From positions 20,292 through 84,291 of the forward strand of contig CANPYJ010000001.1 in NCBI GenBank assembly GCA_947588275.1: a stretch of 64,000 nt of DNA, written 5' to 3'. The notes below the pieces were generated by a model. It was not told the DNA's origin. It searched no databases and saw only the letters and a program-made list of their open reading frames with translations. Of this stretch, positions 1,685 through 54,627 are shown piece after piece (within the stretch, counting starts at the first letter, position 1; the number at the start of each line of letters is the position of its first letter). The translations under genes and the position numbers were made by a program. The DNA comes from an uncultured Alphaproteobacteria bacterium (GTDB lineage Bacteria > Pseudomonadota > Alphaproteobacteria > RF32 > CAG-239).

Positions 1685-3031
1685 TTGAACCCTATTCAGA
1701 GGAAACGTATCGTGCCGGAACAAATCAATCAACAAACTTTTTACAAACTCGGTGGCGGCTATAGCCTGACGCGTCTTAATTCGGCGGAATGCAGCCTGAT
1801 GTTTCGCAATTCCGACAGGCAGCTGTTGGCTGTTTTGAGCGGCTGCGGCAACAAAATCACGGCCATTGCGCCGTATCGGGACTATCAATTGAGCGCGGCA
1901 GAATATAAGCTTTTGCGCCGTTTTGTCTTAACCCGCGGTTTCGGTCTTAATGTCGAAACGGCGGCGGTTCTTGGTCTGTCGGTTTTGCGCTATGCCGACG
2001 GGCGGGAAGAGTTTGTGCCGCCCCGGCGTCTGCGCAAAAAAATTGCCGATGCCTCGGAGTTGGAGTATCTGCATGTCGGCGGGCTGAGGAGACATACGCT
2101 GGTTTTGCCGGACTTTTGCCGCATTAATCTTATAAATCTGAGTCGCGCCGAAATCAAAAAACTCATCATCGGTGTCAATTGCGGCGCCCAGGTGGATTTG
2201 CGCGACAATCAGCATATTGCGGCCGTGCGCGTCGGCAAAAGTTTCAACGGCAGTCTCAATTTGTCGCGCAGCACGGTCGAGAGCGTGGCCATTGCCGATA
2301 ATTGCCGCTGCGATTTGGCCGTGTTTGACAGCAAGCGCTGTTTTACGTTGAATATCGGCGACGTCTACAGCGGCAATCTGCACATCAAAAACTCATGTTT
2401 TCATAATATCGCGGTTGGCTACTACAGCTATGCTGCCCTGCGGTTGACAGACAATTGGGGACGACGCGACGTTGTTGTCGGCGATTCTTTCCGCGGCCAG
2501 ATTTATATGGATAACGTAAATGTCGGCTTGCTCAAAGTCGGCAAAGATTGTAAAGGCGCGGTCAACATTTTGGGCGGCAGCCGCAGGTGCTGCAAGATTG
2601 AACTCGGAAACGAATTTGCCGGCGTGTTGGATTTGCGCGGTCCCTCAAATGTGCAATTGTTGAACATCGGCTCTTATGCCCGCGGCAAATTCAATTTGTT
2701 GGGCGCAGAGTGGATTCGACAGGTAAAATTCGGCAGTTTTTACGCCGGTTATGCCGATTTTAGCGATTCCAAGGTCGAATATGTGAGTGCCGGCGAAGGT
2801 TGCGGCGGCGAAATGGTTTTTTCAGGCTGTGACGGTCTCAAGCTTCTGCAGTTGCCCCGCCATCGTAATTCGGTCTTGGTTCTTGACCATAAACCGTTGG
2901 AAATTCGATCTTCCGGCAATGTGCTATATTATTGTTTCGTACCCGGAGCGGCCGAGAATTTTGCCTATCCGCCACTCTATCAAAAAATTTTTCGCGGGAT
3001 TCGCGGAATTTTTGCCGCTCACAGCGGATAA
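1685..3031 (+). CDS. hypothetical repeat protein with about ten ~21-aa leucine/isoleucine-rich repeats (LRR or beta-solenoid-like). Start codon uncertain (TTG in ORF track).
   Basis: Long ORF with periodic xLxLxx...Ixx pattern (INLINLSRAEIKKLIIGVNC / NGSLNLSRSTVESVAIADNC / NLHIKNSCFHNIAVG ...). No signal peptide seen. Coding-like composition. Confidence 0.5.
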   Translation: MNPIQRKRIVPEQINQQTFYKLGGGYSLTRLNSAECSLMFRNSDRQLLAVLSGCGNKITAIAPYRDYQLSAAEYKLLRRFVLTRGFGLNVETAAVLGLSVLRYADGREEFVPPRRLRKKIADASELEYLHVGGLRRHTLVLPDFCRINLINLSRAEIKKLIIGVNCGAQVDLRDNQHIAAVRVGKSFNGSLNLSRSTVESVAIADNCRCDLAVFDSKRCFTLNIGDVYSGNLHIKNSCFHNIAVGYYSYAALRLTDNWGRRDVVVGDSFRGQIYMDNVNVGLLKVGKDCKGAVNILGGSRRCCKIELGNEFAGVLDLRGPSNVQLLNIGSYARGKFNLLGAEWIRQVKFGSFYAGYADFSDSKVEYVSAGEGCGGEMVFSGCDGLKLLQLPRHRNSVLVLDHKPLEIRSSGNVLYYCFVPGAAENFAYPPLYQKIFRGIRGIFAAHSG

Positions 3032-5182: not shown

Positions 5183-5712
5183 TGCAGCGGCGTCTCGGCA
5201 GTTGTTGCCTGCTCAGGTTCGACCGACGAAACGACTTCCGGCGGGTCAACGGTAAAAGTGGCATTCAGATATTTTTGAAAATCTTTGCGGTCATGCAGAT
5301 TAACGCTGGGCTGGGTGTAGACTTCCGGATTTTCGTCTTTTTGCAGGTCCAGATTATGCTGACGGACACGCATTTTTTGCATCGTTTCAATCGCGTTCAT
5401 CAGCCGCCGGCGTTCCCGCACATCCATGTGGACGGCTTTGTCCTGCAGGGTTCGTTTCAGGCTTTTTTGCGCGACGATAATCTGCTGCGGTGTAAATTCG
5501 GAAACCGGATATTCGATTTTTGGCGCGGCCTCGTCATCGGCTTTGTTTTTTGCAGCTGGAATTTCAGGTGCGGGTTCAAGCGTTTGGGGCAGAGCTTCGG
5601 CAATGGCCGGCGCAGTTTTTTGAGGTGCGGGTGCCGTCGCGGAAGACAACAATTGGGCATGAAGGCCGAAAGGGAATAACGCCGTTGCCAAAATCAGACC
5701 AAATTTGCGCAT
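5179..5712 (-). CDS. secreted hypothetical protein (signal peptide, Pro/Ala-rich N-terminus)
   Basis: MRKFGLILATALFPFGLHA signal peptide. In operon between cysE and trmJ. Confidence 0.5.
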   Translation of the reverse strand: MRKFGLILATALFPFGLHAQLLSSATAPAPQKTAPAIAEALPQTLEPAPEIPAAKNKADDEAAPKIEYPVSEFTPQQIIVAQKSLKRTLQDKAVHMDVRERRRLMNAIETMQKMRVRQHNLDLQKDENPEVYTQPSVNLHDRKDFQKYLNATFTVDPPEVVSSVEPEQATTAETPLQ

Positions 5713-5723
5713 TGTTTAAAGTC

Positions 5724-6299
5724 CTAATCAGTAGAAAGCAAATCTATACTGTTAAACAAGATATTTCCCATATCCAGTCCGGAGCTGTCTTCTACCACGT
5801 CCAAAATTCCGGAGAACATTGTATCAAAGGGGTTGCTCTGATGTCCGAGGCTGTTGTATGCATCATGCAGCTGCCGGGCATAAGCTTGCGGCATATCTTT
5901 GATTTTTTGATCATAGCTTTTCGGAATTTTATATCCCAAATCGCGCAGGTGTTGAGTGGCTACCAGCATATTGTGGCGGTTAACTTCCGGGGCAATCATT
6001 TCTTGTCCCTGAGCCTCGCCGAAAGTCGTGGCTTCGCCGATATAATTGAGCTTGCCGTGTTGTCCGCTGCCGCGCCAGGTCTTGATGCCGCTGTTGTCGC
6101 GGGCGCGCGCCCAAGGATCGACCGGTTGAATATCAGTGCCGTAAAGCGGAGCCTCGGTCACGTTTGTATTGGCGACTTTGTCACCTTTATAACCGTCGTT
6201 GGGCGTAATGTTCCACGGATTCGCCGGAAGCTGTGCCAGTGCGGTGGAACAAACCAGCAGCGCCGCCGCGGCACTCAGCATAACAAATTGTTTTTTCAT
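5724..6299 (-). CDS. secreted hypothetical protein (signal peptide)
   Basis: MKKQFVMLSAAAALLVCSTALAQ signal peptide. 191 aa. Confidence 0.5.
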   Translation of the reverse strand: MKKQFVMLSAAAALLVCSTALAQLPANPWNITPNDGYKGDKVANTNVTEAPLYGTDIQPVDPWARARDNSGIKTWRGSGQHGKLNYIGEATTFGEAQGQEMIAPEVNRHNMLVATQHLRDLGYKIPKSYDQKIKDMPQAYARQLHDAYNSLGHQSNPFDTMFSGILDVVEDSSGLDMGNILFNSIDLLSTD

Positions 6300-6379
6300 A
6301 ACACCCTCCTGCCAAAGACCCCTATAACGTTATCATACCATAAAAAATAGCATAATAATAGTTACAAAATTGTTAAATA

Positions 6380-8703: not shown

Positions 8704-9020
8704 AAAATAACGGGACTTTCCTGTTGCTGAGTAAGTCCCCAACTCCACTTCAGACTAACCAAAGTCCGAAGAATTTGATTTGTTGCGGGCTACACTAAGC
8801 AGCCAATGCAACCGGTGCTACGTTATTATCGTTAGCATTCGTTTTAAGTTGAACCGATAACGGTGGTGTCTCGCCGAACACGACAATCTGTCTTTACTAT
8901 ACCCTGTCAAACCTGTCTCACCCCCTGAAACTCTCGATTGGTGGAGGTGCCGGGTACTGCCCCCGGGTCCAGAATACCTATTTCACAGCGTCTCTGGTGT
9001 CACAGTCGGATTGCTCCGAC
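8704..9020 (-). ncRNA. ssrA: tmRNA (ssrA), circularly permuted two-piece type. Acceptor piece ends ...CACCUCCACCA at 8939. 13-nt intervening segment. Coding piece starts GGGGGUGAGACAGG at 8925. Tag ORF 8836..8795.
   Basis: Minus-strand read gives T-arm-like region + CACCTCC+ACCA, then GGGGGTG (G3:U70 pair) and tag frame GCT AAC GAT AAT AAC GTA GCA CCG GTT GCA TTG GCT GCT TAG = (A)ANDNNVAPVALAA*. Own promoter and terminator. Confidence 0.75.
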
Positions 9021-9027
9021 ACTATAG

Positions 9028-9055
9028 ATTATAAGCAAAATATAAAATTTTTCAA
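9028..9055 (-). promoter_or_regulatory. sigma70-like promoter for ssrA (TTGAAA-16nt-TATAAT on minus strand)
   Basis: Near-consensus hexamers with 16-nt spacer about 8 nt upstream of the acceptor-piece region. Confidence 0.5.
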
Positions 9056-9077
9056 GACATAAGATAACTTGATAATT

Positions 9078-11432: not shown

Positions 11433-11885
11433 CAAAAGTTCATACTATGACAAAAGAAAAACAAACAAACCTACAAGGTTTGGCAGTCCTGCGCAAGCAG
11501 ATGACTGTTCTTTAAGCAAGCTATATGAGTAATCGGTCATCAAATGACGGATTGAAATAAAAAAGGCCAAACAACGTTCACGATGATCTGAAAAGACACA
11601 AAGGATTGTCGGATGGCCTATAGAAAGATCAGAAGCTGTTTTGACTCGAAAACATGATTTGGTTTTTGGCTAGGTGCGAAATTCCGACGTAAGGTGTAAA
11701 AACCGGGAATTACCAAAAAGCAAACCGCTTCTGATCATAACAAAATTCATACATAATCATAATAAAGTGGGAACACCATACAAAAATTTAATTTGTTTGT
11801 CAATAGGTATTCATCTGTTAATTGGTTGGGCAAAGCTCTTGCCAAGCCTGCAAAATTTGGATATGAGAAACAAGAGAGGAATTTG

Positions 11886-12443
11886 ATGAAGCCGAAGTTT
11901 TTATGGAAATTGTGTTTTTTGAGCGCGTTTGCCATGCCGGCGCAGGCGGCGGATTTTGATGTTGACGCGTATGTCGACCAAGTGCAGCAGGACATTGCGG
12001 CAACGTGGAATTCAGACGAATACGATGCCTATGTGCCGCTTTATGCATGGCATAATCGTCTGGCATATGACCAAAAGCACATTGATAAATACAACGAAAA
12101 TCCGTGGGGCTTTGGCATTGGCAAGTCGCGTTTTGACGCCGACGGCAACTGGCACGGGCTGTATGCAATGGCGTTTAAGGATTCCAACAGCTATGCCGAA
12201 ACGTTTTTCGGATATGCTTTTCTCAAAAACTGGTTTGTTGACTGCAATCCTGATTTTCGGGTGGGCGTCGGCTACACGCTTGGGCTGACTCAGCGCCATG
12301 AATACAAATATGTGCCGCTGCCGTTGCCATTGCCGATTGCAGGGGTGGAATACAAGCGAGCGGCGATTCAGGCGGCCTATGTTCCGGGCATAAAAAACGA
12401 CGGCAACGTTTTGTTTGTCTGGACCAGAATCGCCGTTAATTAG
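11886..12443 (+). CDS. pagP: lipid A palmitoyltransferase PagP-family outer-membrane enzyme
   Basis: Signal peptide MKPKFLWKLCFLSAFAMPAQA. WNSDEYDAYVPLYAWHNRLAYD...NENPWGFGIGKSRFD..GNWHGLYAMAFKDSN...GNVLFVWTRIAVN closely follows the E. coli PagP sequence pattern. RBS GAGAGGAA. Confidence 0.75.
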   Translation: MKPKFLWKLCFLSAFAMPAQAADFDVDAYVDQVQQDIAATWNSDEYDAYVPLYAWHNRLAYDQKHIDKYNENPWGFGIGKSRFDADGNWHGLYAMAFKDSNSYAETFFGYAFLKNWFVDCNPDFRVGVGYTLGLTQRHEYKYVPLPLPLPIAGVEYKRAAIQAAYVPGIKNDGNVLFVWTRIAVN

Positions 12444-12581
12444 TGCCTCTGTTAAAATAGAGATATTTTGACAAATTTTAAAAATTATACAAATACTTGA
12501 CTCGACCGATATTTCATTATATTTATGCAATAAATGTATTCGTTCAAACAAAGGGATGTTTACAAACAAAAAGGAGAAAAT

Positions 12582-13466
12582 ATGGATGATATTAAAGCAT
12601 ATTATCCGCAGAAGAGAATCAAGATTGCCGATTTTGAGATGGGCAATGAACTGCCGTTGTGTCTGCTGTGCGGGCCTTGCCAGATAGAGAGCCGCCAGCA
12701 TGCAATAGATATATGCGGCGCCATGCGCGAGACGACGGCCAAACTGGGGATGAACTATGTGTTCAAGGCTTCGTTTGACAAAGCCAATCGCACGTCCATC
12801 AACGGCGCGCGCGGTGTCGGGCTTGAGGAAGGAATGCGCACGTTTGACGAGATTAAGAAGCTCTATAACAATATTCCGATTGTGACCGATGTTCACGAGT
12901 CGTGGCAATGCGCCGAAGTAGCTCGGCATGTCGACATGTTGCAGATTCCGGCGTTTTTGTGCCGTCAGACCGACTTGGTGGTGGCGGCGGCCAAAACCGG
13001 CAAGATTGTTAATGTCAAAAAAGGCCAGTTTTTGGCGCCGTGGGATGTGCCGAACATTGTCAAAAAGGTGATTGACAGCGGCAATGAGAATGTTTGCATC
13101 ACCGAGCGCGGCAGCAGTTTCGGATATAACACGTTGGTGGTTGACATGCGCGGTTTTCCGCAAATGGCGCAAAGCACGGGATGTCCGGTGATATTTGATG
13201 CCACGCATTCGGTTCAGCAGCCCGGAGGCAACGGTGCATCAACCGGCGGTCAACGTGAGTTTGCGCCGGTGTTGGCGCGCGCGGCGGTGGCGGTCGGCGT
13301 GGCCGCGGTGTTTATGGAAACGCACGAAAACCCCGACAAAGCGTTGTCGGATGGTCCTAACACCATAGCGCTCAAAGATATGCCGGCGGTTTTGGCAAGT
13401 TTGCAAGAATATGACGCCATAACCAAGCGAACAAAGTTGCAGCAAACCGCGGTTCAAAATTTCTAA
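12582..13466 (+). CDS. kdsA: 3-deoxy-8-phosphooctulonate synthase (KDO8P synthase)
   Basis: Full KdsA. RBS AAAAGGAGAAAATATG. Long opposite-strand ORF 12012..13208 is antisense noise. Confidence 0.9.
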   Translation: MDDIKAYYPQKRIKIADFEMGNELPLCLLCGPCQIESRQHAIDICGAMRETTAKLGMNYVFKASFDKANRTSINGARGVGLEEGMRTFDEIKKLYNNIPIVTDVHESWQCAEVARHVDMLQIPAFLCRQTDLVVAAAKTGKIVNVKKGQFLAPWDVPNIVKKVIDSGNENVCITERGSSFGYNTLVVDMRGFPQMAQSTGCPVIFDATHSVQQPGGNGASTGGQREFAPVLARAAVAVGVAAVFMETHENPDKALSDGPNTIALKDMPAVLASLQEYDAITKRTKLQQTAVQNF

Positions 13467-13472
13467 AACCAC

Positions 13473-13502
13473 AGTGCCCCGGAAACGGGGCATTTTTTTT
13501 GC
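13473..13502 (+). terminator. rho-independent terminator after kdsA (tgccccg-gaaa-cggggca + T9)
   Basis: Hairpin then 9 T, immediately after the kdsA stop. Confidence 0.7.
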
Positions 13503-13610
13503 GCGGCATTTACACTGATTTAAAAACTGGTGATAAAAACGCATAACTATTTGTTTGCCATAAAAAAATAAACTATGGTCAATTAACTGTAGTTTACTTG
13601 GAGTGGCCAA

Positions 13611-16600
13611 ATGTTTTATCATTTGCAAAGATGCATCGCAATTTTGCTTTTGGCGGCATTTACGACGGTGTATGTGATAATGCCGGCACATGCGTGGTCA
13701 CACCGGCTGTCGCCCTACGATTTTTCGCAAATGTACAATATGGCTGCGCGCGGCGACAAACCGCGCTTGGCGGCGGCCATTGCCCGCGGTCTCAACATCA
13801 ACGCTGTCAACGAAAACGGCGACACCGGTTTGTGCGTTGCGGTGCGGCGGCGCGATGTTCGCGCCTATCACACGTTTAGAGCGGTCGGCGCCAATCCGCG
13901 GCCGGATTGTTCGTGGTCGATTCCCTATTTCAACAATTTTGTTAATGCCGATTATGTCCGCGCGGGCGCCGTCTATGAAACAGGCTCTTACTATGCTGCC
14001 GATGTTCCCAGCGATTATACCGGCCTGATGCAAGATTTGGTAGTCGGCGGCCTTATTGTCGGAGGCATAGTGGCGCTTTGGCCTCACGGTGGAAGTCACC
14101 ATAAGAATCCTTGCGCAGAAAACCCTTGTAGTGCAGGCTGTTTCGTCAATCTCCAATGTCTTGAAGACGAAGTTTGTACTCAAACCAACAGTTGCGGCGG
14201 TTGTGAGAAATGCGAGGCAAAATGTACGGTGGATCATTGTGCTGCGGGGTGTCCGGATACGGTGGAAGTGACCTGTAAAAGTGGCCAAGAATGCACACAC
14301 TACAACGAATGCGGCGTTTGTGACAGTTGTGACAGCACCTGCAAACTCAACCATTGTGCTGCGGGGTGTCCGGATACCCAGAGCATAGAGTGTCCGGCCG
14401 GTCGTCATTGTACTCAGTACAATGACTGTGGTGCATGCATTCAATGTTCCGGCGCTTTTGTCAAAGAAAACGTGCCTGGCCAGAATACTGAACCTCTTAC
14501 CAAAGACGGTTCGCAGGAAAAGGGAACTTGGGGCGGTATATACACTTCATCCTATAACGTGGATAACAAAGGCAGAATCACTCTTACCGGTGATGGCGGT
14601 TTTGGCATTATGTCTTGTTCCCAAGAAAGTGAACAAAATTGTCTTGATGGCGACGTTCGCGCCGGTCCAAATATCACCAACGGCGGTGAAATCAGCATCA
14701 CCGGCAAGAAAGGCACCGGCATTTTTGCCACCACACCGGGAAGCAACGGCAGCGGCACCTACAATTCCGGCACGTTGACCAACAGCGGCAATATCACCAT
14801 CACCGGCAACGACGGCAACGGTATGACCCTTTTAGGCCATGGCAATATTAACAACACCGGCAATATCACCATGACAGGGGAAATGACTCTGCGTGGCGAA
14901 GATACGTCCAATCCGCATCATCCCGATGCCGATGAAGGCTATCATCCCCGCCGCAACAGCGCCATTTATTGGGATAATACATCTTTGGTGAATTCTGACG
15001 GATCTGCCGGCAACCATATGAAGTATACAATTCCAAATGCCACAAAATACACCATTAAAAATCAAGGGGCGATAAATATAACCGCAGACGTTGATCATAG
15101 TCGGGAGGGACTTTCGTTCAAGTATCCCAGTGTCCGAGGAATCAGCGTGAGGTTTAATTCTTTGACTAGTGCAAACGATACGATAGAAGTTGATAATTAT
15201 AACAACATCACCATTCATGGGAAACTTAAGAATTCTGCCAGCTCGGCATCATCGGACGGCCGCTTCGGCGCCATTGGCATCGAGATTGAGTCATCGGTTG
15301 GTGAACTCCACAATCAAAATGGCAGCATCACCATCGACACCGACTATGGCGGCACGGGCGTATATGTGCGTCCTTCCGAAAATGTAGGCAAAACTTCGAC
15401 GTTTACAGCGGATTTCACCGGCGACATCACCATCGCCAACGGCGGTGCCGGTATCGTTTTTGAGGGACAGAAGCTGGACTATCAGGGCAAAATTTCTGTT
15501 GGCAAGGACAGTCAAAGTAAAGACTCAAGCGCCATAGAGGTTGCTTCCGGTGACGTTAATATCAAGACAAACAGTACCTTGGAAGCCAAAGGAAAGAACG
15601 CATACGGGATTAATGTGATCGAGAAGCTTGGCTCCGGCGAGGGAAATGATCCGAAAATAACCAATAACGGCGCCATTAATGTTTCCGGAGACAATGCCGT
15701 GGGAATTTCGTTAAGCGGCCAAGCTACAGGCACAAACGAAACCGGTGCTAAGATTGAAGTCTCCGGAACTACGAAAGCGTATGGCGTCTATGCAACTCAA
15801 ACCGGTGATGCGGGATTCGAAAACAAAGGCGACATAAACGTCAGCGGCGCCGGAGAAGTCGTCGGCATGTTCGGCGACGGCGAAAATGGAGAAAACGATG
15901 AAACCGTGGTTTTGAAAAACAGCGGAACCATCACGGTGAGCAGCAGTTCTTCAGATCAAGCCATAGGAATGAAAGGCCGCGGTTCCAAGACCACCTTGAC
16001 AAACACGGGTACAATTACGGTAACCGGCGGCAGCGAAGACAAAAAGATGGTGTGTGAAGATGATGCAAAGGGATGTAATGGCGCAATGGGTGCGAGCCTC
16101 GCCGCGTTTGAACTCACCGAGGGCGCCCGTTTGGTCAACAAAGGCACCATTATGAGCGACGGCAGCCTCAATTTTAGTCAAATGGGTGACGGCAGTGGCC
16201 ATGTGGTGGCCGGCAAGGGCAGCCGTTTTAAGGCTGAGTCGGTTTCCGGAAATTTGGAGGCCGGCGCAGATCTGACCACCGGTTCAAATGCCGACAATTA
16301 TGTCGAATCCGATGTTGTCGAGTCGCAGGATATTGATTTGCAACTTGATTCCGGTTCGGCAATGTTTGACGCTCGGCTGAGCCGCAAAGCGGGCGGATTT
16401 GCCGACATCGTCATGGCGCGACGCAACTTTAACGAAATCCTCCAACACAATGATTTGGCAAATTATTTGGAGCAAAACTATGTTCAAAATAAACGCATAG
16501 ATTTGTATGATCGCCTCAAAACCTATGTCTCTGCAGCCGATTTGGACGCTGCTGCCGAATCTTGGTTCGGGCGCAATTTCATTCCCTTGCTGGCGTGGCA

Positions 16601-17468
16601 GAATCAGCAGCGCATCCGGCACTTTAATCAAACCATGCAAAATCTGGCGCTGGCCGAAACCAACAAGCCCGAGCGCAGTGTCGCCACGTTTGACGGCTAT
16701 TACGCCGAATACGAAGCACGCAAAAACTTTCCCGGCTACGAAGACCGCCTCTCGGGCATCAGCACGCTGTTTGACAAAGATGTCGGCAACGGTCATCGCT
16801 ATGGATTCGGCATCGGCGTATATAATGCTTATGCCGATTTTGACGGCGACGGCAGCCGCCGCGACGTCTTAGTTCAGCTTTATCAGCCGCATGTGTTTGA
16901 AAACCGCGCGGCCGGCGCTGCTGTGATGCCTTATCTCGGCTATGACCGCGGGCGCTATAAGCGTTATTCCGATTGGGGTAAATTCGAACCGGATTTTGAT
17001 GTCTGGTATGGTGGACTCGCCAATCGCCTGTGGCTTAAATATCCGGTCGGCAGCATTCGGATAGAACCGACGGCAGAACTCAACCTGAATGTTGTTCATC
17101 AGGGCAAAATCACCGAAAAACAAGGTGTTGAAGTTGATGCCGACACCGATGTTTCGGTTGAAGCCGGTCTCGGCGCATTTGTCGAACATCGTTCGGATTT
17201 GGGCGAAAGCGGCAAACTCAAACTCCGCGCCGGCGCCATGTATTATCATGAACTCAACGACAACGTCTATGACCGCCGCCGCGCCAAAATGTCCGGCATG
17301 AACGGCAAATATAACATAGGAGGATACGAAACCGACAAAGATTCGGCCTTGTTCAGTGTTCAGTCCGATTATACGGTCGGTCGTTTCAGCGTCTATGGCG
17401 AAGTTCGGCAGTTTGTCGGACATAATGACAACGTGGTCTACAATCTCGGTCTGCGGGTGGCTTTTTAG
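13611..17468 (+). CDS. autotransporter (type Va) protein. Signal peptide, ankyrin-like segment, hydrophobic segment, cysteine-rich triple repeat (CAAGCPDT..C..YN.CG.C), Gly/Asn/Thr-rich beta-helical passenger, C-terminal beta-barrel translocator ending ...LGLRVAF.
   Basis: N-terminal MFYHLQRCIAILLLAAFTTVYVIMPAHA. ANK-like GLNINAVNENGDTGLCVAV. 26-nt exact DNA repeat at 14235-14260 / 14352-14377. GNITITG-type repeats. Last ~280 aa alternate hydrophobic residues and end in aromatic F. Confidence 0.8.
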   Translation: MFYHLQRCIAILLLAAFTTVYVIMPAHAWSHRLSPYDFSQMYNMAARGDKPRLAAAIARGLNINAVNENGDTGLCVAVRRRDVRAYHTFRAVGANPRPDCSWSIPYFNNFVNADYVRAGAVYETGSYYAADVPSDYTGLMQDLVVGGLIVGGIVALWPHGGSHHKNPCAENPCSAGCFVNLQCLEDEVCTQTNSCGGCEKCEAKCTVDHCAAGCPDTVEVTCKSGQECTHYNECGVCDSCDSTCKLNHCAAGCPDTQSIECPAGRHCTQYNDCGACIQCSGAFVKENVPGQNTEPLTKDGSQEKGTWGGIYTSSYNVDNKGRITLTGDGGFGIMSCSQESEQNCLDGDVRAGPNITNGGEISITGKKGTGIFATTPGSNGSGTYNSGTLTNSGNITITGNDGNGMTLLGHGNINNTGNITMTGEMTLRGEDTSNPHHPDADEGYHPRRNSAIYWDNTSLVNSDGSAGNHMKYTIPNATKYTIKNQGAINITADVDHSREGLSFKYPSVRGISVRFNSLTSANDTIEVDNYNNITIHGKLKNSASSASSDGRFGAIGIEIESSVGELHNQNGSITIDTDYGGTGVYVRPSENVGKTSTFTADFTGDITIANGGAGIVFEGQKLDYQGKISVGKDSQSKDSSAIEVASGDVNIKTNSTLEAKGKNAYGINVIEKLGSGEGNDPKITNNGAINVSGDNAVGISLSGQATGTNETGAKIEVSGTTKAYGVYATQTGDAGFENKGDINVSGAGEVVGMFGDGENGENDETVVLKNSGTITVSSSSSDQAIGMKGRGSKTTLTNTGTITVTGGSEDKKMVCEDDAKGCNGAMGASLAAFELTEGARLVNKGTIMSDGSLNFSQMGDGSGHVVAGKGSRFKAESVSGNLEAGADLTTGSNADNYVESDVVESQDIDLQLDSGSAMFDARLSRKAGGFADIVMARRNFNEILQHNDLANYLEQNYVQNKRIDLYDRLKTYVSAADLDAAAESWFGRNFIPLLAWQNQQRIRHFNQTMQNLALAETNKPERSVATFDGYYAEYEARKNFPGYEDRLSGISTLFDKDVGNGHRYGFGIGVYNAYADFDGDGSRRDVLVQLYQPHVFENRAAGAAVMPYLGYDRGRYKRYSDWGKFEPDFDVWYGGLANRLWLKYPVGSIRIEPTAELNLNVVHQGKITEKQGVEVDADTDVSVEAGLGAFVEHRSDLGESGKLKLRAGAMYYHELNDNVYDRRRAKMSGMNGKYNIGGYETDKDSALFSVQSDYTVGRFSVYGEVRQFVGHNDNVVYNLGLRVAF

Positions 17469-30758: not shown

Positions 30759-30815
30759 ATAAACTTCTTATATTTCAAGCGCGATGTTAATTGCTGCTTG
30801 AAGGAGAGGTTTGTC

Positions 30816-31991
30816 ATGCATTTTGATTCTTATATTCCGACCCGCATAATATTCGGCCGCGGCCGGCTGGAAGAATTGGCCGCGCTGCCGCTGCCGGGCA
30901 AAAAAGCGTTGATTGTCATTACCAACGGCAAGTCAATGCGCAATTTGGGCTATCTGGATCGCGTCATTCGCCTTTTGGAACAAAATGGCGCGGCGGTGGT
31001 TGTCTTTGATAAGATTCTGCCAAATCCCGTGGTCGCCCATGTTATGGAGGCGGCGGAATTGGCGCGCAATGAAAATTGCGACTTTATCATCGGCTTGGGT
31101 GGCGGCAGCGCCATCGATTCAGCCAAGTCGATTGCCTTGATGATAAAAAATTCGGGCACTTATTGGGACTATGTTAAACGTGTCAAAAAGATTACGGAGC
31201 CGGTTTTGCCGATTATTGCCATTCCCACCACCGCCGGCACCGGAACCGAGGTTGACCCGTGGACGGTCATCACCAATCCGGACACGGGTGAAAAAATCGG
31301 CTTTGGCGATGATGTTCTGTTTCCCAAATTGGCGATTGTCGATTCGGAACTGATGACGTCGGTGCCGCAGCGCCTGACTGCCTATCAGGGAATGGACGCT
31401 TTTTTCCATGCCGTTGAGGGATATTTGGCCTGTGTGGCTCAGCCGTTGAGCGACATATTGGCCATTGAAACCATACGTCTGGTTGCCGAATTTTTGCCGC
31501 AAGCGGTCAAAGACGGCAATAATTTGCAAGCGCGCGAACAAATGGCGTGGGCTGCCACCGCAGCCGGATTGGTCGAAAGCACTTCAAGCTGTATTTCGGA
31601 ACATTCCATGGAGCATGCGTTGTCGGCTTTTTATCCGGAATTGCCGCACGGTGCCGGATTGGTGGCGCTTTCGGTGCCGTATTTTACGCATTTGCTGAAA
31701 AAAGAGCCCGAAAAAGTTTCCGTTCGTTATTTGGAAATGGGGCGCGCCATGGGCGAGGAAGGAAATTCGCCGGAGATTTTTATAGCGGCGCTGAAAAAAC
31801 TTATTGATAAAGTCGGTCTGAGCGACTTGCGCCTGTCGGACTGGGGAATCAAACCCGACGAAGCCGAGCGTTTGGCGGCCAATTCGTACGAAGCCATGGG
31901 CGCCTTGTACGAGCTTGATCCTGTGCGCCTGCAAGATGATGACACGGTTCAGATTTTTCGCGAAGCCATCATGCGCCGCTCCGGCGAATAA
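30816..31991 (+). CDS. iron-containing alcohol dehydrogenase
   Basis: GGGSAIDSAKSIA and Fe-ADH signature regions. RBS GAAGGAGAGG. Confidence 0.85.
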   Translation: MHFDSYIPTRIIFGRGRLEELAALPLPGKKALIVITNGKSMRNLGYLDRVIRLLEQNGAAVVVFDKILPNPVVAHVMEAAELARNENCDFIIGLGGGSAIDSAKSIALMIKNSGTYWDYVKRVKKITEPVLPIIAIPTTAGTGTEVDPWTVITNPDTGEKIGFGDDVLFPKLAIVDSELMTSVPQRLTAYQGMDAFFHAVEGYLACVAQPLSDILAIETIRLVAEFLPQAVKDGNNLQAREQMAWAATAAGLVESTSSCISEHSMEHALSAFYPELPHGAGLVALSVPYFTHLLKKEPEKVSVRYLEMGRAMGEEGNSPEIFIAALKKLIDKVGLSDLRLSDWGIKPDEAERLAANSYEAMGALYELDPVRLQDDDTVQIFREAIMRRSGE

Positions 31992-32195: not shown

Positions 32196-33893
32196 ATGTC
32201 TAAAATCTTAATTACTTCCGCATTGCCGTATATCAACGGAGTGCCGCACTTGGGGCACATCGTCGGCTGCCTGCTGCCGTCAGACATTTATGCACGGTAT
32301 ATGCGACTGAAGGGTGAAGAAGTTTTATACATTGCCGGTACCGATGAGCACGGCACCACATCCGAGGTCGGCGCTCTCAAGGAGGAAATGGATATTCAGG
32401 CCTATTGCGACATGTACCATCAGCGTCATGCCAAGACCTATAAGGATTTTAATCTGTCGTTTGACTATTTTGGCCGAACCTCAAGCGAGCAAAACAAAGA
32501 AATTACTTATCATATTTTTGAACGGCTGGATAAAAACGGCTTTATTGAGGAACGTACGGTCAAACAGGTATACAGCGTCGACGACAAAATGTTTTTGGCC
32601 GACCGCTACATTACCGGAACTTGCCCGCACTGCGGATATGAAAAAGCTCGCGGCGACCAGTGCGAAAACTGCACAAAAGTTCTGGAACCGACCGAACTCA
32701 TCAATCCGCGCAGCTCGATTTCGGGTTCGGCAAACTTGGAAGTGCGGGAAACAAAGCATCTGTTTTTGAATCTGCCCAAGCTCGAAAAACGTTTGGCCCA
32801 ATGGATAAAGACCAAAGAGCCGTTCTGGCCGGAAGTGGCCTATACCATTGCGCAAAAATGGCTTAAAGAAGGTTTGCAGTCTCGCTGCATTACCCGCGAT
32901 CTCAAATGGGGTTTTCCGGTCAACAAAGCCGGCTATGAAGACAAAGTCTTTTATGTGTGGTTTGACGCGCCTATCGGCTATATCGGCATTACCAAACAAT
33001 GGGCCGACGCCAAACCGTCCGAACGCGATTGGCGTGATTGGTGGCTCAATGCCAAAGACGTCCGCCATGTTGAATTTATGGGCAAAGACAATGTGCCGTA
33101 CCACTCCATAACGTTTCCGGCCACACTTTTGGGTACCGGAGAAAACTGGACACAAGTAGACTATCTGAAAGGCATGAGCTATCTGACTTATGAGGGAGGC
33201 AAGTTTTCCAAATCGGAAAAACGCGGCATCTTTGCCGAAGACGCAATCAAAGAATTTCCGGCCGACTATTGGCGCTATTGGCTGATGAGCAATGCTCCGG
33301 AAGGTTCTGATGCCTCATTTGGCTTTGACTTGTTCGCCGCCGTGGTCAACAAAGATTTGAACAGCGTTCTCGGCAATTTTGTGTCGCGCGTGCTCAAAAT
33401 GACGGCTTCAAAAATCGATTCCGAAGTTCCGGCCGGCGGCAATTTGGAACAACCGGAGAAAGAGTTGATAAATACCCTGCAGATCCGCGTCAAAGATTAT
33501 CTGAAATATATGGATGAAATGGAATTTCGCAAAGCTCTCAACGAATTGCGCGCCATATGGGTCGAGGGCAACAACTACATCTCGGTGACCGAACCATGGA
33601 CCGTCATCAAAACCGACGAGGCAAGGGCAGCCGCCATTTTGCGCGTGTGCATCAATCTGATTCGGATTTTTGCTGTTTTGAGCGCGCCGATAATGCCTAC
33701 AATCAGCGCATCCATGCTGCAAAGACTGGGACTGACGCCGGCCGATATGCCGAGCCTCAAAGACTTTGACGTCAGCCGTGAAATCGAGGCCCTCAAACCC
33801 GGCACGCCGTTTACCGTGGGCGAAACCCTGTTTGAACGCATTACGCCGGAAAAGATTGAAGAATTAAAACAAAAATATGGGAGTAGCAAATAA
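32196..33893 (+). CDS. metG: methionine--tRNA ligase (short form without C-terminal tRNA-binding domain)
   Basis: HIGH (PYINGVPHLGHIVG) and KFSKS (KMSKS) motifs. Zinc knuckle CPHCGY...CENC. Confidence 0.95.
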   Translation: MSKILITSALPYINGVPHLGHIVGCLLPSDIYARYMRLKGEEVLYIAGTDEHGTTSEVGALKEEMDIQAYCDMYHQRHAKTYKDFNLSFDYFGRTSSEQNKEITYHIFERLDKNGFIEERTVKQVYSVDDKMFLADRYITGTCPHCGYEKARGDQCENCTKVLEPTELINPRSSISGSANLEVRETKHLFLNLPKLEKRLAQWIKTKEPFWPEVAYTIAQKWLKEGLQSRCITRDLKWGFPVNKAGYEDKVFYVWFDAPIGYIGITKQWADAKPSERDWRDWWLNAKDVRHVEFMGKDNVPYHSITFPATLLGTGENWTQVDYLKGMSYLTYEGGKFSKSEKRGIFAEDAIKEFPADYWRYWLMSNAPEGSDASFGFDLFAAVVNKDLNSVLGNFVSRVLKMTASKIDSEVPAGGNLEQPEKELINTLQIRVKDYLKYMDEMEFRKALNELRAIWVEGNNYISVTEPWTVIKTDEARAAAILRVCINLIRIFAVLSAPIMPTISASMLQRLGLTPADMPSLKDFDVSREIEALKPGTPFTVGETLFERITPEKIEELKQKYGSSK

Positions 33894-34684
33894 TGGGCAA
33901 AAATAATCGCAAAGACGCCTTTATCGGTCCCTTAAAAGGCTGGGCAAAGTTTTTTCACCGGTTGTTTTTGTTTATCACCTATCCGGTGCGCAAACCCAAA
34001 ATTTGGTTGCTGATAGTGCCGGTTTTGGCCATTTTGTATTTGGCGCCGACATTCCGCGGAATCAAACCGGCAGAAGTCCATCTTTGGTATTGGGGAATGA
34101 TTCAACAAAATATATCGAAGATAAGTGCCGCGTTTAATGAGCAGACACAAAAAATTCTGCCGCAAATTCAACCGGCGCCCAAAGCGCCTCAGATGATTGA
34201 TTTGCCGGTCAAAGAGAGTCGCCGCAAAGTGTTTGAACGCGCCAAGTCGGCACCGGTGGTCGTGGTTGAAGCGGCGCCGGCGGAAGTAAACCTTGCTCCG
34301 CGTCCGGCTCCTCGGCGCCAGGTGTCGGAAGAGGTCGAACAACCCAAGCTGCAACCGGCAGCCCAAAAAACAAATAAGCTTGATTTGAATTATCTGGACG
34401 AACCCAAAACGGTCAGCGGCGTTGCCCGATTCCTTAATGCCAACGAACTCCAAATCGACAACACTTATATGTTTTTGTACGGAATCTATGTCGATCCGAA
34501 GTCTGACAAAGGTTTCTATGCTCTGAATTTTTTGGACAAGCTGGTAAAGGGGAAAACGGTCGTCTGCACAATCAACGCCTACACGCATCAATCAATAGCC
34601 ACTGCCGTCTGCACGGTAAACGGCGAAAACATCAATCGTCTGTTGGTTGACAAAGGATATTCCCGTAACGTCGCTTTGGATTGA
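33893..34684 (+). CDS. membrane-anchored protein with Pro/Ala-rich linker and C-terminal thermonuclease (SNase)-fold-like domain. Translationally coupled to metG (TAATG).
   Basis: N-terminal TM helix (IWLLIVPVLAILYLAP). C-terminal ...IDNTYMFLYGIYVDPKSD...AVCTVNGENINRLLVDKGYSRNVAL resembles the SNase core pattern. Confidence 0.45.
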   Translation: MGKNNRKDAFIGPLKGWAKFFHRLFLFITYPVRKPKIWLLIVPVLAILYLAPTFRGIKPAEVHLWYWGMIQQNISKISAAFNEQTQKILPQIQPAPKAPQMIDLPVKESRRKVFERAKSAPVVVVEAAPAEVNLAPRPAPRRQVSEEVEQPKLQPAAQKTNKLDLNYLDEPKTVSGVARFLNANELQIDNTYMFLYGIYVDPKSDKGFYALNFLDKLVKGKTVVCTINAYTHQSIATAVCTVNGENINRLLVDKGYSRNVALD

Positions 34685-44746: not shown

Positions 44747-44824
44747 TCCGTCGCGTGAAATAATATATTGACACACAATGGCGTTCTTGCTAAAATAAAA
44801 GAAAAGTCTTTTATGGAGGCAGGA

Positions 44825-45856
44825 ATGAAAAAGCTATCGTTTGCAGCGGCGTTAGGCATTGGAACAATGCTCGCAACTTCGGCTTTGGCGGCAGACTGTG
44901 TCAAGGCCGACTGCGCAAGTTTAGGCTACACTCTTTCTCTTCCCGCCAATTGTCTTGAATCGATTAATTGTCCGTTTGACACGGCTTATAAAGCTTGCAC
45001 CCATTTAGAGAACGACTTGTTGGATGCCTGTCCTGCCGGCAAAACCTGCGAAACCAAATATAAGGTTACCGGTACTAAGCCGGATATACAAGTAGGTATG
45101 ATTGCGTTGTCCGACGGCCAATTTGTCAAGCCGGACGAATTGCGGTATTATGTGACGCCAGCGACACCAGATCGCTTTCCGATAGGGATTGTTGCTTGGG
45201 TGGACGCCAACGGACACGGTGCAATTGTCGGCTTGCGCGATACAAATCCGCACGGAGACGACATTGGTGACGATCATTACGAAAAAGCCCCGTGGCGTTA
45301 TTATACAAACGGATATACCGTCGACGGTCCGGAAATTACCGGCAACCTTTATTATGATCCTTATTACGGCAACGGCGAAGCCAAAGACGATATGAACGGG
45401 CTGGAGCATATGCAGACCATTATTAAAAATTGGCGATATTCGCTCTCAAATTGTCACGAAAACGGTAATGGAAATGTCGGTGGAACTTGTGATGACGCCG
45501 GCATGGCGATGAGCTCATGCTTTTGCTACAAACCCACATTTACGTTTGAAGGTCCTCAGCTCACTGTTGCTAAGCGTATCAATCCGTTTGGCACAACAAC
45601 CGGCTGGTGGTATATGCCGTCTTACGGTGAGCTTCTAAAACTGGCGAATGCGGCCGATAAGATCAACGCTTCAATGAGTGCTTTTGATGAAGAGGTGTTT
45701 GGCAGCTCAAATTATCGAAAACTTGATTTTGATTCCAAATGTTATTGGAGCTCGACGGAACATGCAAGCCGCATTGTTTATGCATGGGGTCAATGCCAAT
45801 ATGGAACCTTTGAAAAAACCGAATGGAATACCGTACGCTGTCTTTTGCCGTTTTAG
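44825..45856 (+). CDS. secreted cysteine-rich hypothetical protein with C-terminal DUF1566-like (Lcl-type) domain
   Basis: Signal peptide MKKLSFAAALGIGTMLATSALA. Many Cys. GWWYMPSYGELLKL resembles the DUF1566 W(R/Y)LPT..EL motif. RBS GGAGGCAGGAATG. Confidence 0.5.
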   Translation: MKKLSFAAALGIGTMLATSALAADCVKADCASLGYTLSLPANCLESINCPFDTAYKACTHLENDLLDACPAGKTCETKYKVTGTKPDIQVGMIALSDGQFVKPDELRYYVTPATPDRFPIGIVAWVDANGHGAIVGLRDTNPHGDDIGDDHYEKAPWRYYTNGYTVDGPEITGNLYYDPYYGNGEAKDDMNGLEHMQTIIKNWRYSLSNCHENGNGNVGGTCDDAGMAMSSCFCYKPTFTFEGPQLTVAKRINPFGTTTGWWYMPSYGELLKLANAADKINASMSAFDEEVFGSSNYRKLDFDSKCYWSSTEHASRIVYAWGQCQYGTFEKTEWNTVRCLLPF

Positions 45857-47522: not shown

Positions 47523-48203
47523 TTATTTGCTGCCTTTGTTCAAAACCACAAACCGATAGTAAGCCGTGGAAATTATCACCAGCGTTTTAATCAGGCACCA
47601 GCAACCCAAGACAATCGCCGCCGGCACAAACCACCCCGGCACCACGCACAAAACGACCAGCACAATCAGGGTTTCGGCGCCTTGCGCCCAGCCGCCCAGA
47701 TAAAACGGAGATTCGTTCAAAACCGTCTCAATTCCGCCGTTACGTGAATAAGCCACCACCCCGTAGGCCAGCATGGCGCAGGCCGAGGCCGCAAAACCAA
47801 ACAGCAAAAACGCGGCAGCCGCGGCATTTTGCGCCGTGTCGGCCAAAGCGAACCCGAATATGACCGCGGCATAAAACGTGTAGTCGAGCGCTGCGTCCAA
47901 AAACACGCCGAACGGCGTTTTGCCCTCAATTTTGGCCACAACGCCGTCAAGCGCGTCGCCAAGCCGATTAAGCAAAATGCAGATTAACGCCCAACCATAC
48001 ATTTCCAGGGCCAAAAAGTTGAGGGCCAGCATGCCGACGACAAATCCGCCGATGCTGACGGCGTTGGCCGAAACTCCTTTCTTGGCGAGCCAATGTCCGA
48101 GACGGTGCACGTTTTCGTCCACACAGTCGACGCCGGAGCACAAATTAGTGCGATTATATTGTGTGCGGATATAATTAATGATTGCGTTCAGTTTGTCTTG
48201 CAT
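47523..48203 (-). CDS. CDP-alcohol phosphatidyltransferase family protein
   Basis: DG..AR..G....G..D motif region (NRLGDALDGVVAK...GVFLDAALD). Multiple TM. Start set at MQDKLNAI. Confidence 0.6.
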   Translation of the reverse strand: MQDKLNAIINYIRTQYNRTNLCSGVDCVDENVHRLGHWLAKKGVSANAVSIGGFVVGMLALNFLALEMYGWALICILLNRLGDALDGVVAKIEGKTPFGVFLDAALDYTFYAAVIFGFALADTAQNAAAAAFLLFGFAASACAMLAYGVVAYSRNGGIETVLNESPFYLGGWAQGAETLIVLVVLCVVPGWFVPAAIVLGCWCLIKTLVIISTAYYRFVVLNKGSK

Positions 48204-48297
48204 CGTATAATCCTTTTGCCGGAAGATAAATAATGCGAACATTATAATTCCATTTTTAAACAATGTAAAAACCAACTTTAAGGTTATAAAGAATAAT

Positions 48298-51893: not shown

Positions 51894-51895
51894 CG

Positions 51896-52861: not shown

Positions 52862-52863
52862 TC

Positions 52864-53445: not shown

Positions 53446-53446
53446 G

Positions 53447-54043: not shown

Positions 54044-54045
54044 CA

Positions 54046-54621: not shown

Positions 54622-54627
54622 TTCGGA

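Follow-up and report, generated by a model that had tools for sequence, protein, structure and literature searches.

The window analysed here is a stretch of 64,000 nucleotides from an uncultured gut alphaproteobacterium. Positions 13611..17468 (+) form a complete ORF (1285 aa, stop codon included) with neither frameshift nor internal stop; its product is predicted to be a self-exporting surface protein of the outer membrane. The ORF immediately upstream (12534-13463) encodes a DAHP_synth_1/KdsA protein and is followed by an intrinsic terminator, so that the autotransporter gene begins a separate transcription unit. On its two sides the gene has kdsA and recO/parC as neighbors. The flanking genes of relatives at loci L001 and L004 differ and are unrelated to kdsA/recO, and no conserved partner gene was found in the three neighborhoods compared (window, L001 and L004). 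A full-length DsbD is encoded within the same 64-kb window. In the public collection, the protein is identical to P0001, which forms a singleton cluster. The features of the locus are the following:

13473..13504, +, intrinsic terminator of the upstream kdsA gene (9-bp G+C stem, then a T-run)
13600..13603, +, ribosome-binding site GGAG, 7 nt 5' of the ATG, read from the sequence
13611..13694, +, Sec signal peptide, aa 1-28 (basic n-region with R7, hydrophobic core, cleavage site between AHA and W)
13707..13970, +, ankyrin head, aa 33-120 (about two repeats with a core at aa 37-97, and capping helices)
14022..14081, +, hydrophobic Gly-zipper segment, aa 138-157, core LVVGGLIVGGIVALW (L143-W157)
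14112..14222, +, Cys-rich module 1, aa 168-204, 8 Cys
14223..14339, +, Cys-rich module 2, aa 205-243, 8 Cys, CAAGCPDT variant
14235..14260, +, 26-nt exact repeat, copy 1, encoding HCAAGCPDT
14340..14456, +, Cys-rich module 3, aa 244-282, 8 Cys, CAAGCPDT variant
14352..14377, +, 26-nt exact repeat, copy 2
14508..16610, +, repetitive passenger region, aa ~300-1000 (repeats of G-N-I-T-I-T-G type)
16227..16424, +, weak BigA beta-sandwich-like stretch, aa 873-938 (PF25783, E 3.7e-4)
16695..17465, +, autotransporter beta-barrel translocator, aa 1029-1285 (PF03797)

Type Va autotransporters are single polypeptides that, unlike two-partner secretion systems, have no dedicated transporter gene; they are recognized by a Sec signal peptide, a 12-stranded C-terminal barrel and a C-terminal aromatic beta-signal for BAM. 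Here, barrel and passenger are encoded in one ORF. The signal peptide, assigned by sequence inspection, has a core of 17-19 residues that is the most hydrophobic stretch of the whole protein (Kyte-Doolittle 2.3-2.5), and its AxA-type cleavage site aligns across 30 family members. The Pfam Autotransporter family PF03797 matches aa 1029-1265 with an E value of 8.3e-22 (78.6 bits; cut-off 26), the C-terminal family profile matches PDB 9oqa_A, an "Autotransporter domain-containing protein" (E 5.7e-6), and the chain ends in ...YNLGLRVAF, with an aromatic last residue, F. The typical type Va barrel ending in F reported in the preliminary description is thus borne out, and the GNITITG-type passenger repeats listed there were recovered as direct-repeat families D1, D2 and D4. 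The passenger, to which the full-length homologue P0004 aligns over aa ~300-1000, presumably folds as a beta-helix, as its periodic repeats and the weak BigA matches suggest; in two places, C336/C344 and C815/C822, a pair of Cys lies close together. The BigA_beta match (PF25783) scores 20.7 bits in the window protein, under the 24.3-bit cut-off, and precomputed BigA_3rd/BigA_4th matches in relatives P0169 and P0161 were not reproduced at E<=0.01. Judged by its sequence, the protein is a classical type Va autotransporter.

An exhaustive search returned 290 relatives at E<=1e-3, including 141 at E<=1e-10. The species genomes contributed 106 loci, almost all of them in MAGs with a gut or rumen Alphaproteobacteria label, and as far as sampled the family is confined to uncultured gut and rumen Alphaproteobacteria. 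What the relatives share is a signal peptide, an ankyrin domain, a W-flanked Gly-zipper segment and, usually, a poly-Gly stretch. This N-terminal module heads autotransporters of 1100-4300 aa, and the passengers behind it are only ~22% identical. The hydrophobic segment lies at aa ~137-152 in nearly all long ORFs and is directly followed by poly-Gly in 50 of 64 ORFs; the C-terminus is homologous in 79 of 92 long relatives, and F is the last residue in 57 of the 59 complete long ORFs. Median identity is 44% for the ankyrin head versus 28% for the barrel, with the head scoring higher in 385 of 400 pairs, a comparison that is biased by the family having been collected via its N-terminus. Two homologues, P0208 and P0213, stand alone: each runs from a signal peptide through an ankyrin domain to a strongly hydrophobic anchor at the C-terminus. 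They adjoin an OMP_b-brl gene and are found in more than 1100 assembly blocks. The layout of P0208 suggests an ancestral module in the form of a periplasmic protein tethered to a membrane. The N-terminal 300 aa fall outside every curated family, Pfam and NCBIfam giving nothing there apart from a weak Ank match, and our literature search found no paper describing this architecture. The family is large and previously undescribed; the architecture that the preliminary description could not recognize is without curated family or descriptive paper, but with 290 relatives it is not a one-off.

The ankyrin-like segment noted earlier behind the signal peptide is a real two-repeat ankyrin domain. Alone, the window protein stays under the Ank_4 threshold (15.6-18.6 bits versus 22.7), and the TPLH motif of the ankyrin repeat is replaced by TGLC. 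However, 22 of 30 family members match Ank_4 (best 1.3e-5), so that both domains named in advance for the domain search, Autotransporter and Ank, were found. A profile built from the 30 members matches solved ankyrins in the PDB over aa 37-95 (E 1.4e-11), and also AnkB, an "Ankyrin-like protein" (9iq8), including its N-terminal region; the chain of Acinetobacter ABAYE2397 (5d66) matches the ankyrin-head family profile as well. AF2 models aa 31-120 with pLDDT 90-96, placing helices at 35-46, 50-58, 73-79 and 83-91, and the top 50 Foldseek matches of the head are all DARPins or ankyrin proteins (best E 2.5e-3; ~61 aligned columns, rmsd ~3 A, probability 1.0). Thirteen positions are invariant in the 30-member alignment. 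Two of them are Cys (C75 and C100, present in 30 of 30 sequences), and their invariance fits a putative disulfide made outside the cytoplasm.

Downstream of the head, the 17-residue hydrophobic stretch of the preliminary description was located at aa 138-157. It is flanked by W, displays a (small)xxx(small) pattern and has a Kyte-Doolittle value of 1.88, exceeded only by the signal peptide. The residues that follow it in the window protein are PHGGSHH, in place of the poly-Gly of most relatives. AF2 predicts no helix over the segment (pLDDT <50). On a crude Hessa-scale sum, which takes no account of residue position or segment length, the median for the best 19-mer is +1.95 kcal/mol, and values below 0 occur in only 6% of 152 members, as compared with -1.49 for the anchor of the stand-alone P0208. 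Net charge is about +1 upstream and about -1 downstream of the segment, the reverse of a stop-transfer anchor. The family passengers contain no further TM-like segments, and neither the Gly-zipper Pfam families nor Rick_17kDa_Anti matched the protein at E<=1 or 30 N-terminal sequences at E<=0.1. The hydrophobicity sums, the flanking charges and the lack of further TM-like segments are compatible with export.

Residues 168-279 contain 24 Cys, arranged in three tandem 8-Cys modules with the spacing C-x4-C-x3-C-x5/7-C-x5-C-x5-C-x2-C-x2-C, in agreement with the three consecutive Cys-rich modules described initially. Module 1 is the copy nearest to the family consensus, C-x2-N-x-C-A-x-G-C-Y/F-x-N-L-x-C...N-x-C-G-G-C-E-x-C. 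In AF2 the modules form confident beta-hairpin units (pLDDT 86-93, mean 89). They have no match in Pfam, among PDB sequences or in a fold search; in particular, by sequence or fold they match none of EGF, laminin-EGF, the TNFR CRD, granulin and 4Fe-4S ferredoxin, and the possibility, raised beforehand, that they represent a common annotated domain was not borne out by any match. The only structures in their Foldseek list are small disulfide-rich modules of the TNFR CRD, EGF, laminin-EGF or LDL-receptor type. TNF-receptor CRDs, EGF and laminin-EGF domains and LDL-receptor repeats are similarly units of ~35-40 aa with 6-8 Cys and a beta-hairpin, joined head to tail in a rod, and some relatives of the window protein have true EGF_laminin matches where the modules sit. 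The 8-Cys modules are confined to one subfamily, in which one relative reaches 98 Cys over the whole protein; the passenger in the window has 29. The 26-nt repeat is exact and lies at both positions originally given for it; 200 shuffles of the gene produced none longer than 14 nt. The recent module duplication deduced from it goes too far: modules 2 and 3 are just 59% identical in DNA (51% in protein), which makes the 26-nt identity a local patch.

Pertactin, the SPATEs and Salmonella BigA, monomeric type Va autotransporters whose passenger is a beta-helix, likewise combine a signal peptide, a long repetitive passenger and a PF03797 barrel ending in F, have their functional domain at the N-terminus and require no accessory gene. 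The window protein and its family add a conserved ankyrin head, an internal TM-like segment, a poly-Gly hinge and Cys-rich modules; typical type Va passengers are poor in Cys and devoid of hydrophobic helices, in contrast to the 29 Cys found here and up to 98 in relatives. AnkB (9iq8) and ABAYE2397 (5d66) are also signal-peptide-bearing ankyrin domains of the Gram-negative envelope. These proteins, however, are small, stand alone and have more repeats, whereas the window family has about two, with an invariant Cys pair, TGLC and a fusion to an autotransporter. The likeness to Helicobacter pylori VacA, a pore-forming toxin secreted by the type Va route, is limited to an N-proximal hydrophobic segment of GXXXG type. 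The VacA segment occupies the very N-terminus of the mature toxin; in the present family the corresponding segment comes after a 100-aa ankyrin domain and ahead of poly-Gly. PDB sequence searches with the protein or the family profiles returned no VacA chain. The N-terminal hydrophobic region of VacA has three tandem GXXXG motifs that are required for channel formation, and this stretch drives oligomerization as well as formation of the membrane channel (PMC4926140).

In the reading we favor, to which we assign a probability of roughly 0.5, the product is a surface protein with an ankyrin tip, a VacA-like glycine zipper and a disulfide-rich stalk. The precursor would pass the inner membrane via Sec, with the signal peptide cut between AHA and W. 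The second hydrophobic segment would let transfer continue, since its hydrophobicity is marginal (4-5 Gly) and no positive charges lie on its C-terminal side. The barrel would then insert in the outer membrane and the passenger would be threaded outward from C to N; with this polarity, the ankyrin head would be the last part to emerge and would end up at the distal tip. A flexible Gly hinge would support it there, joined in this subfamily by a stalk of small disulfide-rich modules, and the head would bind a conserved protein partner. By analogy with VacA, the glycine-zipper segment may serve self-association or membrane insertion.

The tips of adhesins are usually their variable part. Conservation of the head would fit a role in biogenesis or in the envelope at least as well as a surface tip, and such a conserved role is a live alternative to the host interaction that the preliminary description suggested from the eukaryote-like ankyrin segment, because the head is the most conserved part, a stand-alone homologue exists and a bacterial AnkB matches the profile. 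Along these lines, the N-terminal module could be a biogenesis or anchoring device that is never displayed, its ankyrin domain folded and disulfide-locked in the periplasm. The hydrophobic segment would be membrane-associated, and the module may either tether a very long passenger transiently or stay behind as a plug or anchor; in the latter case poly-Gly, as the thinnest chain a polypeptide can form, would lie in the barrel pore or close to it. Transient tethering is the supposed function of the extended signal peptide region (ESPR) in other large autotransporters, which is likewise an extra conserved N-terminal element specific to long type V passengers; slowing or tethering of release from the inner membrane as by an ESPR is a plausible analogy. 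The ESPR, however, lengthens the signal peptide itself by ~25 aa, whereas here a folded 100-aa domain and a second hydrophobic segment lie past a normal cleavage site; the window protein has no ESPR Pfam match. Pseudomonas AnkB is periplasmic, and its match to the profile speaks for this alternative, as do the lead of the ankyrin core over the barrel (385 of 400 pairs, 13 invariant positions), the use of one module ahead of passengers otherwise ~22% identical, the genuine anchor of P0208 and P0213 beside an OMP_b-brl gene, and poly-Gly placed right behind the segment in 50 of 64 ORFs. Against this alternative, solved type Va barrels contain the linker helix in their lumen, so that the finished barrel could hardly accommodate a second strand. 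A true inner-membrane anchor is topologically impossible, for an N-out/C-in segment would leave passenger and barrel in the cytoplasm. Moreover, the window protein lacks poly-Gly (PHGGSHH) yet retains all other parts, and the conservation measure is biased by the N-terminal search. Autotransporter passengers are normally Cys-poor, and type Va translocation is stalled by folded or disulfide-looped elements, large disulfide loops blocking it (PMC9769942); a disulfide-stapled ankyrin domain and four-disulfide modules should thus hinder export if oxidized in the periplasm. The stalling by such elements counts for the undisplayed device and against the surface reading, and the latter is also weakened by the lack of a predicted helix over the hydrophobic segment and by the crudeness of the hydrophobicity estimate. 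On balance we regard an undisplayed device as a serious but rather doubtful explanation.

It is unlikely that ankyrin domain, zipper and poly-Gly make up a new type V device, either as a membrane-inserting tip, whose zipper may oligomerize in a host or neighbor membrane as VacA does and carry the ankyrin domain across or onto it, or as a periplasmic lock, in which the passenger may be displayed as a loop fixed at its two ends, poly-Gly lying within the pore. Binding of metal by the 8-Cys modules (zinc or iron-sulfur-like) in place of disulfide bonding would suit the anaerobic gut habitat, but seems quite improbable. The region follows a signal peptide in a Sec-exported passenger, whereas Fe-S cluster assembly takes place in the cytoplasm. 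Even at E<=10 neither a Fer4 nor a zinc-finger Pfam family matches, conserved His or Asp residues are absent from the module, and a DsbD is present in the window. The even number of 8 Cys, the conserved Gly, Asn and Tyr and the hairpin-plus-turn AF2 model are typical of extracellular disulfide modules. We give very little credence to the hydrophobic segment being a stop-transfer helix, with the protein resident in the inner membrane, its ankyrin domain periplasmic and its autotransporter part either without function or an artefact of fusion or assembly. A Kyte-Doolittle value of 1.88 over 19 residues is within the range of TM helices, and in the stand-alone homologues the corresponding segment serves as the terminal anchor. 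However, the fused segments are systematically less hydrophobic than that anchor, with flanking charges reversed, and neither a frameshift nor an internal stop interrupts the window gene. At least 57 complete ORFs, drawn from the genomes of different species, retain the order of parts with an open frame, homologous barrel and final F, which means that selection has kept the barrel in frame behind the segment.

If the unlikely reading of ankyrin domain, zipper and poly-Gly as a new type V device were true, the Cys-rich subfamily, with up to 98 Cys, would in addition imply that the type Va pathway either exports heavily disulfide-bonded modules or delays their oxidation. Either outcome would contradict the accepted rule of the low-cysteine, unfolded passenger.

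The reading of this gene as an autotransporter gene was supported by a Pfam match of its product to the Autotransporter beta-domain (PF03797) at residues 1029-1265 (E 8.3e-22; 78.6 bits, cut-off 26), and the GNITITG-type periodicity described for the passenger was likewise found. The C-terminal profile of the family matches a solved "Autotransporter domain-containing protein" (9oqa_A, E 5.7e-6). The signal peptide (residues 8-26) is one of the two most hydrophobic 19-mers in the protein. Having such a barrel, a signal peptide and a terminal Phe in a single polypeptide, the protein belongs, on sequence-level criteria, to the type Va autotransporters, with display of the passenger as the predicted outcome. 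An NCBIfam search with the protein gave no match. The setting of the gene is as follows.

Features of the window (coordinates, strand where assigned, description)
343-1647, Fe-ADH gene
8709-9059, reverse, two-piece (permuted) alphaproteobacterial tmRNA (RF01849, 181 bits)
11793-12440, forward, PagP lipid A palmitoyltransferase homologue (E 1e-59), directly 5' of kdsA and two genes before the autotransporter gene
13473-13504, intrinsic terminator of kdsA, upstream of the autotransporter gene
13611-17468, forward, autotransporter ORF (1285 aa), with GGAG 7 nt 5' of its ATG
30798-31988, Fe-ADH gene
45930-47522, reverse, full-length DsbD (DsbD_N, DsbD_TM and Thioredoxin_7)
49744-54040, forward, Rnf electron-transport operon (RnfB/C/D/.../A-E)
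54631-55290, reverse, uracil-DNA glycosylase (UDG), after the Rnf operon

As the kdsA terminator is clean and lies directly before the autotransporter gene, the latter has its own transcription start. The other genes of the window are housekeeping or envelope genes (thyA, pagP, kdsA, recO, parC, SLT, PBP5, tmk, holB, metG, trkH, the Rnf operon, DsbD) and GC content is even at about 49%; the autotransporter gene is therefore core chromosomal, and a mobile-element or island setting was rejected. No second copy or paralogue occurs within the window. The two-piece tmRNA served to place the organism, and the Rnf operon together with the two Fe-ADH genes points to an anaerobic lifestyle. Several ORFs of 263-796 aa had no Pfam match at E<=1e-5 (59410-61797 on the forward strand; 1685-3028, 5520-6347, 33893-34681, 44768-45853 and 47526-48350 on the reverse strand); the 796-aa ORF adjoins a BPD_transp_1 permease gene.

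When 1.84 billion representative sequences were searched exhaustively with phmmer, 290 proteins matched at E<=1e-3, 141 of them at E<=1e-10. Apart from P0001, the identical protein in the public collection, the relatives are mostly 1200-4300 aa long, match residues ~5-165 of the window protein with their own N-termini and share one arrangement: a signal peptide, then an ankyrin-like stretch, a Gly-rich hydrophobic segment (residues ~130-165) and a C-terminal Phe. They are named only "hypothetical protein" or "ankyrin repeat domain-containing protein", and the conserved ankyrin/hydrophobic module at the N-terminus is without annotation. A word-indexed homologue search with residues 1-330 found nothing, which reflects a limit of the index rather than a real absence since phmmer gave 290 proteins; the same limit applies to the empty result obtained there with the profile of the Cys-rich modules, and the profile of the 30-sequence family alignment retrieved mostly short fragments. 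An empty result from the indexed search was thus misleading for this long, repetitive, Cys- and Gly-rich protein, whose family was missed or seen in fragments only. A genome-contig search with the whole window protein yielded no close relative.

When one genome per GTDB species was scanned with a 12-sequence alignment of the ankyrin part, 106 loci were confirmed, nearly all of them, by label, in MAGs of uncultured Alphaproteobacteria from the guts of humans, mice, ruminants and other hosts. The few labelled Firmicutes or Bacteroidetes, on "cleanbin" MAGs, are probably binning errors. ORF architecture was counted at 80 of these loci: the terminal Phe is present in 57 of 59 complete long ORFs, the hydrophobic segment in nearly all ORFs, and a run of at least four Gly follows that segment in 50/64; 12 members are Cys-rich. 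A chimeric assembly or gene-fusion artefact was rejected, the architecture recurring in at least 57 complete ORFs. Gene neighbourhoods vary among members, so that no partner gene is implied. An iterative search started from the window beta-domain recovered the C-terminus in 79 of the 92 long relatives, the most Cys-rich among them; P0022, a relative with 98 Cys, nonetheless has a homologous autotransporter barrel.

Conservation is highest in the ankyrin core. Among 400 random pairs drawn from 75 full-length representatives, median identity was 44% in the ankyrin core, 28% in the barrel, 28% in the junction and 22% in the passenger; the ankyrin core exceeded the barrel in 385 pairs, a contrast inflated by the gathering of the set through N-terminal similarity. 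The relative P0004 is homologous to the window protein over its full length (36-44% identity), whereas P0169 is 38% identical over residues 1-155 and then shows almost nothing recognisable. Despite this bias, the conservation is unlike that of the usual variable adhesin tip and keeps open a role in binding a conserved partner or in biogenesis.

The window protein alone gave a sub-threshold Pfam match to Ank_4 (residues 45-85), but 22 of the 30 family members match Ank_4, and the family profile matches solved ankyrin proteins over residues 37-95 (E 1.4e-11), in agreement with the ankyrin-like segment of the preliminary description. AlphaFold2 (AF2) modelling from a 15-sequence alignment gave the expected helix pairs at pLDDT 90-96 over residues 31-120, and DARPins or natural ankyrin proteins made up all 50 best Foldseek matches in the PDB (~61 columns aligned, rmsd ~3 Å). 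Profile and modelled fold both place this head (residues 33-120) in the ankyrin repeat superfamily, as a domain of two repeats and capping helices. The canonical TPLH reads TGLC in it. C75 and C100, among the 13 invariant positions of the 30-sequence alignment, lie at sites from which a putative disulfide could tie repeat 2 to the C-cap.

The hydrophobic stretch noticed earlier corresponds to residues 138-157 (core LVVGGLIVGGIVALW), which rank with the signal peptide as the two most hydrophobic 19-mers of the protein. Anchored on the poly-Gly, the family consensus is S/T-W-W-(W/I)-L-G-G-x-A-x-G-G-G-x-A-A-L-A-S, then 4-10 Gly (mode 7) and a Ser/Asp-rich stretch. The spacing is that of a (small)xxx(small) glycine zipper, retained in the window protein as GG-x3-GG; there, PHGGSHH stands in place of the poly-Gly. 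In the Cys-poor subfamily (e.g. P0026, P0035, P0044) a short conserved motif, [E/D]-x-Y-x-S-L-G, is found ~15-25 residues past the poly-Gly, after an acidic/Ser-rich linker, and probably marks the start of the folded passenger.

A stop-transfer helix following a cleaved signal peptide would leave passenger and barrel in the cytoplasm. Across 152 members, the Hessa-scale sum over the best 19-mer of the segment, a crude and position-independent measure, has its median at +1.95 kcal/mol and drops below 0 in only 6%. Net charge falls from about +1 on the upstream side of the segment to about -1 on the downstream side, opposite to the order around a stop-transfer anchor, and no further hydrophobic segment able to re-initiate export exists. 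From these three properties we argue that the zipper is built to be exported. AF2 predicted no helix in this region (pLDDT <50). A cleaved internal signal peptide or an internal start was also considered and rejected, the orientation being wrong after a cleaved first signal peptide and no upstream Met being conserved; small residues occupy position -1 of the putative cleavage site in about 70% of members.

The closest precedent for the zipper is VacA, secreted by the type Va route, whose mature N-terminus is an uncharged stretch of 32 residues; the three GXXXG motifs that it carries in tandem are essential to oligomeric channel formation (PMC4926140). PDB searches with the protein and the family profile found no sequence homology to VacA. 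The window protein falls outside the VacA, ESPR, glycine-zipper Pfam and known Cys-rich domain families, and its Pfam match to the BigA beta-sandwich is sub-threshold.

The three consecutive Cys-rich modules reported earlier are real: 24 of the 31 Cys lie within residues 168-279, as three 8-Cys units spaced C-x4-C-x3-C-x5/7-C-x5-C-x5-C-x2-C-x2-C. The passenger has 29 Cys; those outside the modules are two short-spaced pairs, C336/C344 and C815/C822. In 22 family proteins, 39 distinct copies yield the consensus C-x2-N-x-C-A-x-G-C-Y/F-x-N-L-x-C-x2-G-x2-C-x3-N-x-C-G-G-C-E-x-C, every copy lying after the Gly hinge and before the repetitive passenger begins. AF2 modelled each module of the window protein as a beta-hairpin plus short helix (pLDDT 86-93 within residues 1-335; average 89 for the region alone). 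The module did not prove to be a common annotated domain: neither Pfam nor PDB sequences gave a match at E<=10, and Foldseek gave only insignificant matches to TNFR, LDLR and EGF-type modules (best E 0.69). Other relatives carry different Cys-rich modules at the same position, including laminin-EGF-like and "...ANYPL...RYKI..." types. A unit of the latter kind, "...C..ANYPL..CP...C..C....RYKI..C..GY...", is repeated up to ~15 times in a passenger; relatives with these other module types are P0009, P0010, P0012, P0014, P0018, P0022, P0027 and P0058 (residues ~280-900) and in P0064, P0070 and P0198.

The modules deserve attention because most autotransporter passengers are low in Cys and because large disulfide loops, if they form ahead of translocation, block export (PMC9769942). 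The full-length DsbD gene implies a periplasmic thiol-reducing or isomerisation pathway, of relevance to a passenger so rich in Cys. Metal binding is a minority alternative for the modules, favoured by the CxxCxxCxxxC formed where one module ends and another begins.

The 26-nt exact repeat (14235-14260 and 14352-14377), which encodes HCAAGCPDT in modules 2 and 3 (14223-14456), exceeds the longest exact repeat in 200 shuffles of the gene (14 nt). Its interpretation as a recent module duplication did not hold: modules 2 and 3 are just 59% identical in DNA (70/118 aligned nt) and agree at 20/39 aa, and module 1 is 48-55% identical to either in DNA. The patch is thus an island of identity between otherwise diverged modules, better fitted by a short gene-conversion tract or very local constraint; its perfect match takes in synonymous sites, which suggests gene conversion between the repeats.

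Two 150-aa homologues, P0208 and P0213, consist of a signal peptide, the ankyrin domain and a C-terminal hydrophobic tail that is much more hydrophobic than the fused zippers (Hessa-scale values of -1.49 and 0.0, respectively). Such stand-alone homologues were found in more than 1100 assembly blocks, adjoining an OMP_b-brl gene. The P0208 gene (6001-6453 in loci L086-L089; also in L076) has the OMP_b-brl gene before it and two small unannotated ORFs after it. It lies downstream of Rnf-UDG, in the gene order also seen at window positions 49744-55290, but the window has no copy.

Our preferred mechanism, to which we assign a probability of about 0.5 as a whole, is that the precursor would be exported by Sec and cut at AHA|W, the marginally hydrophobic zipper crossing the inner membrane. 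Once the barrel had inserted, the passenger would be threaded out from C to N, so that the ankyrin head, carried by the Gly hinge and a disulfide-rich stalk, would come to lie at the distal end and bind a conserved protein partner there; the zipper would self-associate or enter a membrane, as in VacA. The N-terminal module might instead never leave the periplasm, acting as a transient tether, for which ESPR is the analogue, or else plugging or anchoring passengers of great length. The anchored stand-alone homologue, the high conservation of the ankyrin module, the poly-Gly and the known poor tolerance of the pathway for folded, disulfide-locked elements all speak for such retention; the barrel lumen is already occupied, however, and the poly-Gly is missing from the window protein, and we consider retention rather unlikely, though still a serious competitor of the distal-head mechanism. 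With at least 57 intact ORFs from different species, it is very improbable that the segment is a genuine anchor in the inner membrane or that the architecture is an artefact.

Type V secretion is a model for outer-membrane translocation as well as a display platform, and its working rules hold that passengers cross unfolded, have few cysteines and lack membrane-spanning helices. Judged by its sequence features, the family runs against all three. The family, widespread and unannotated in a poorly known group of gut bacteria, does not amount to a new secretion system, and a literature search found no paper describing the ankyrin-autotransporter architecture. Establishing the final location of the N-terminal module, and whether and how the Cys-rich modules exit, would probe the size and redox limits of the type V pathway. 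To our knowledge, these gut Alphaproteobacteria have almost no cultured members or characterised surface proteins. With more than 100 species-level representatives in the human, mouse and ruminant gut, the family may be their main surface protein family.
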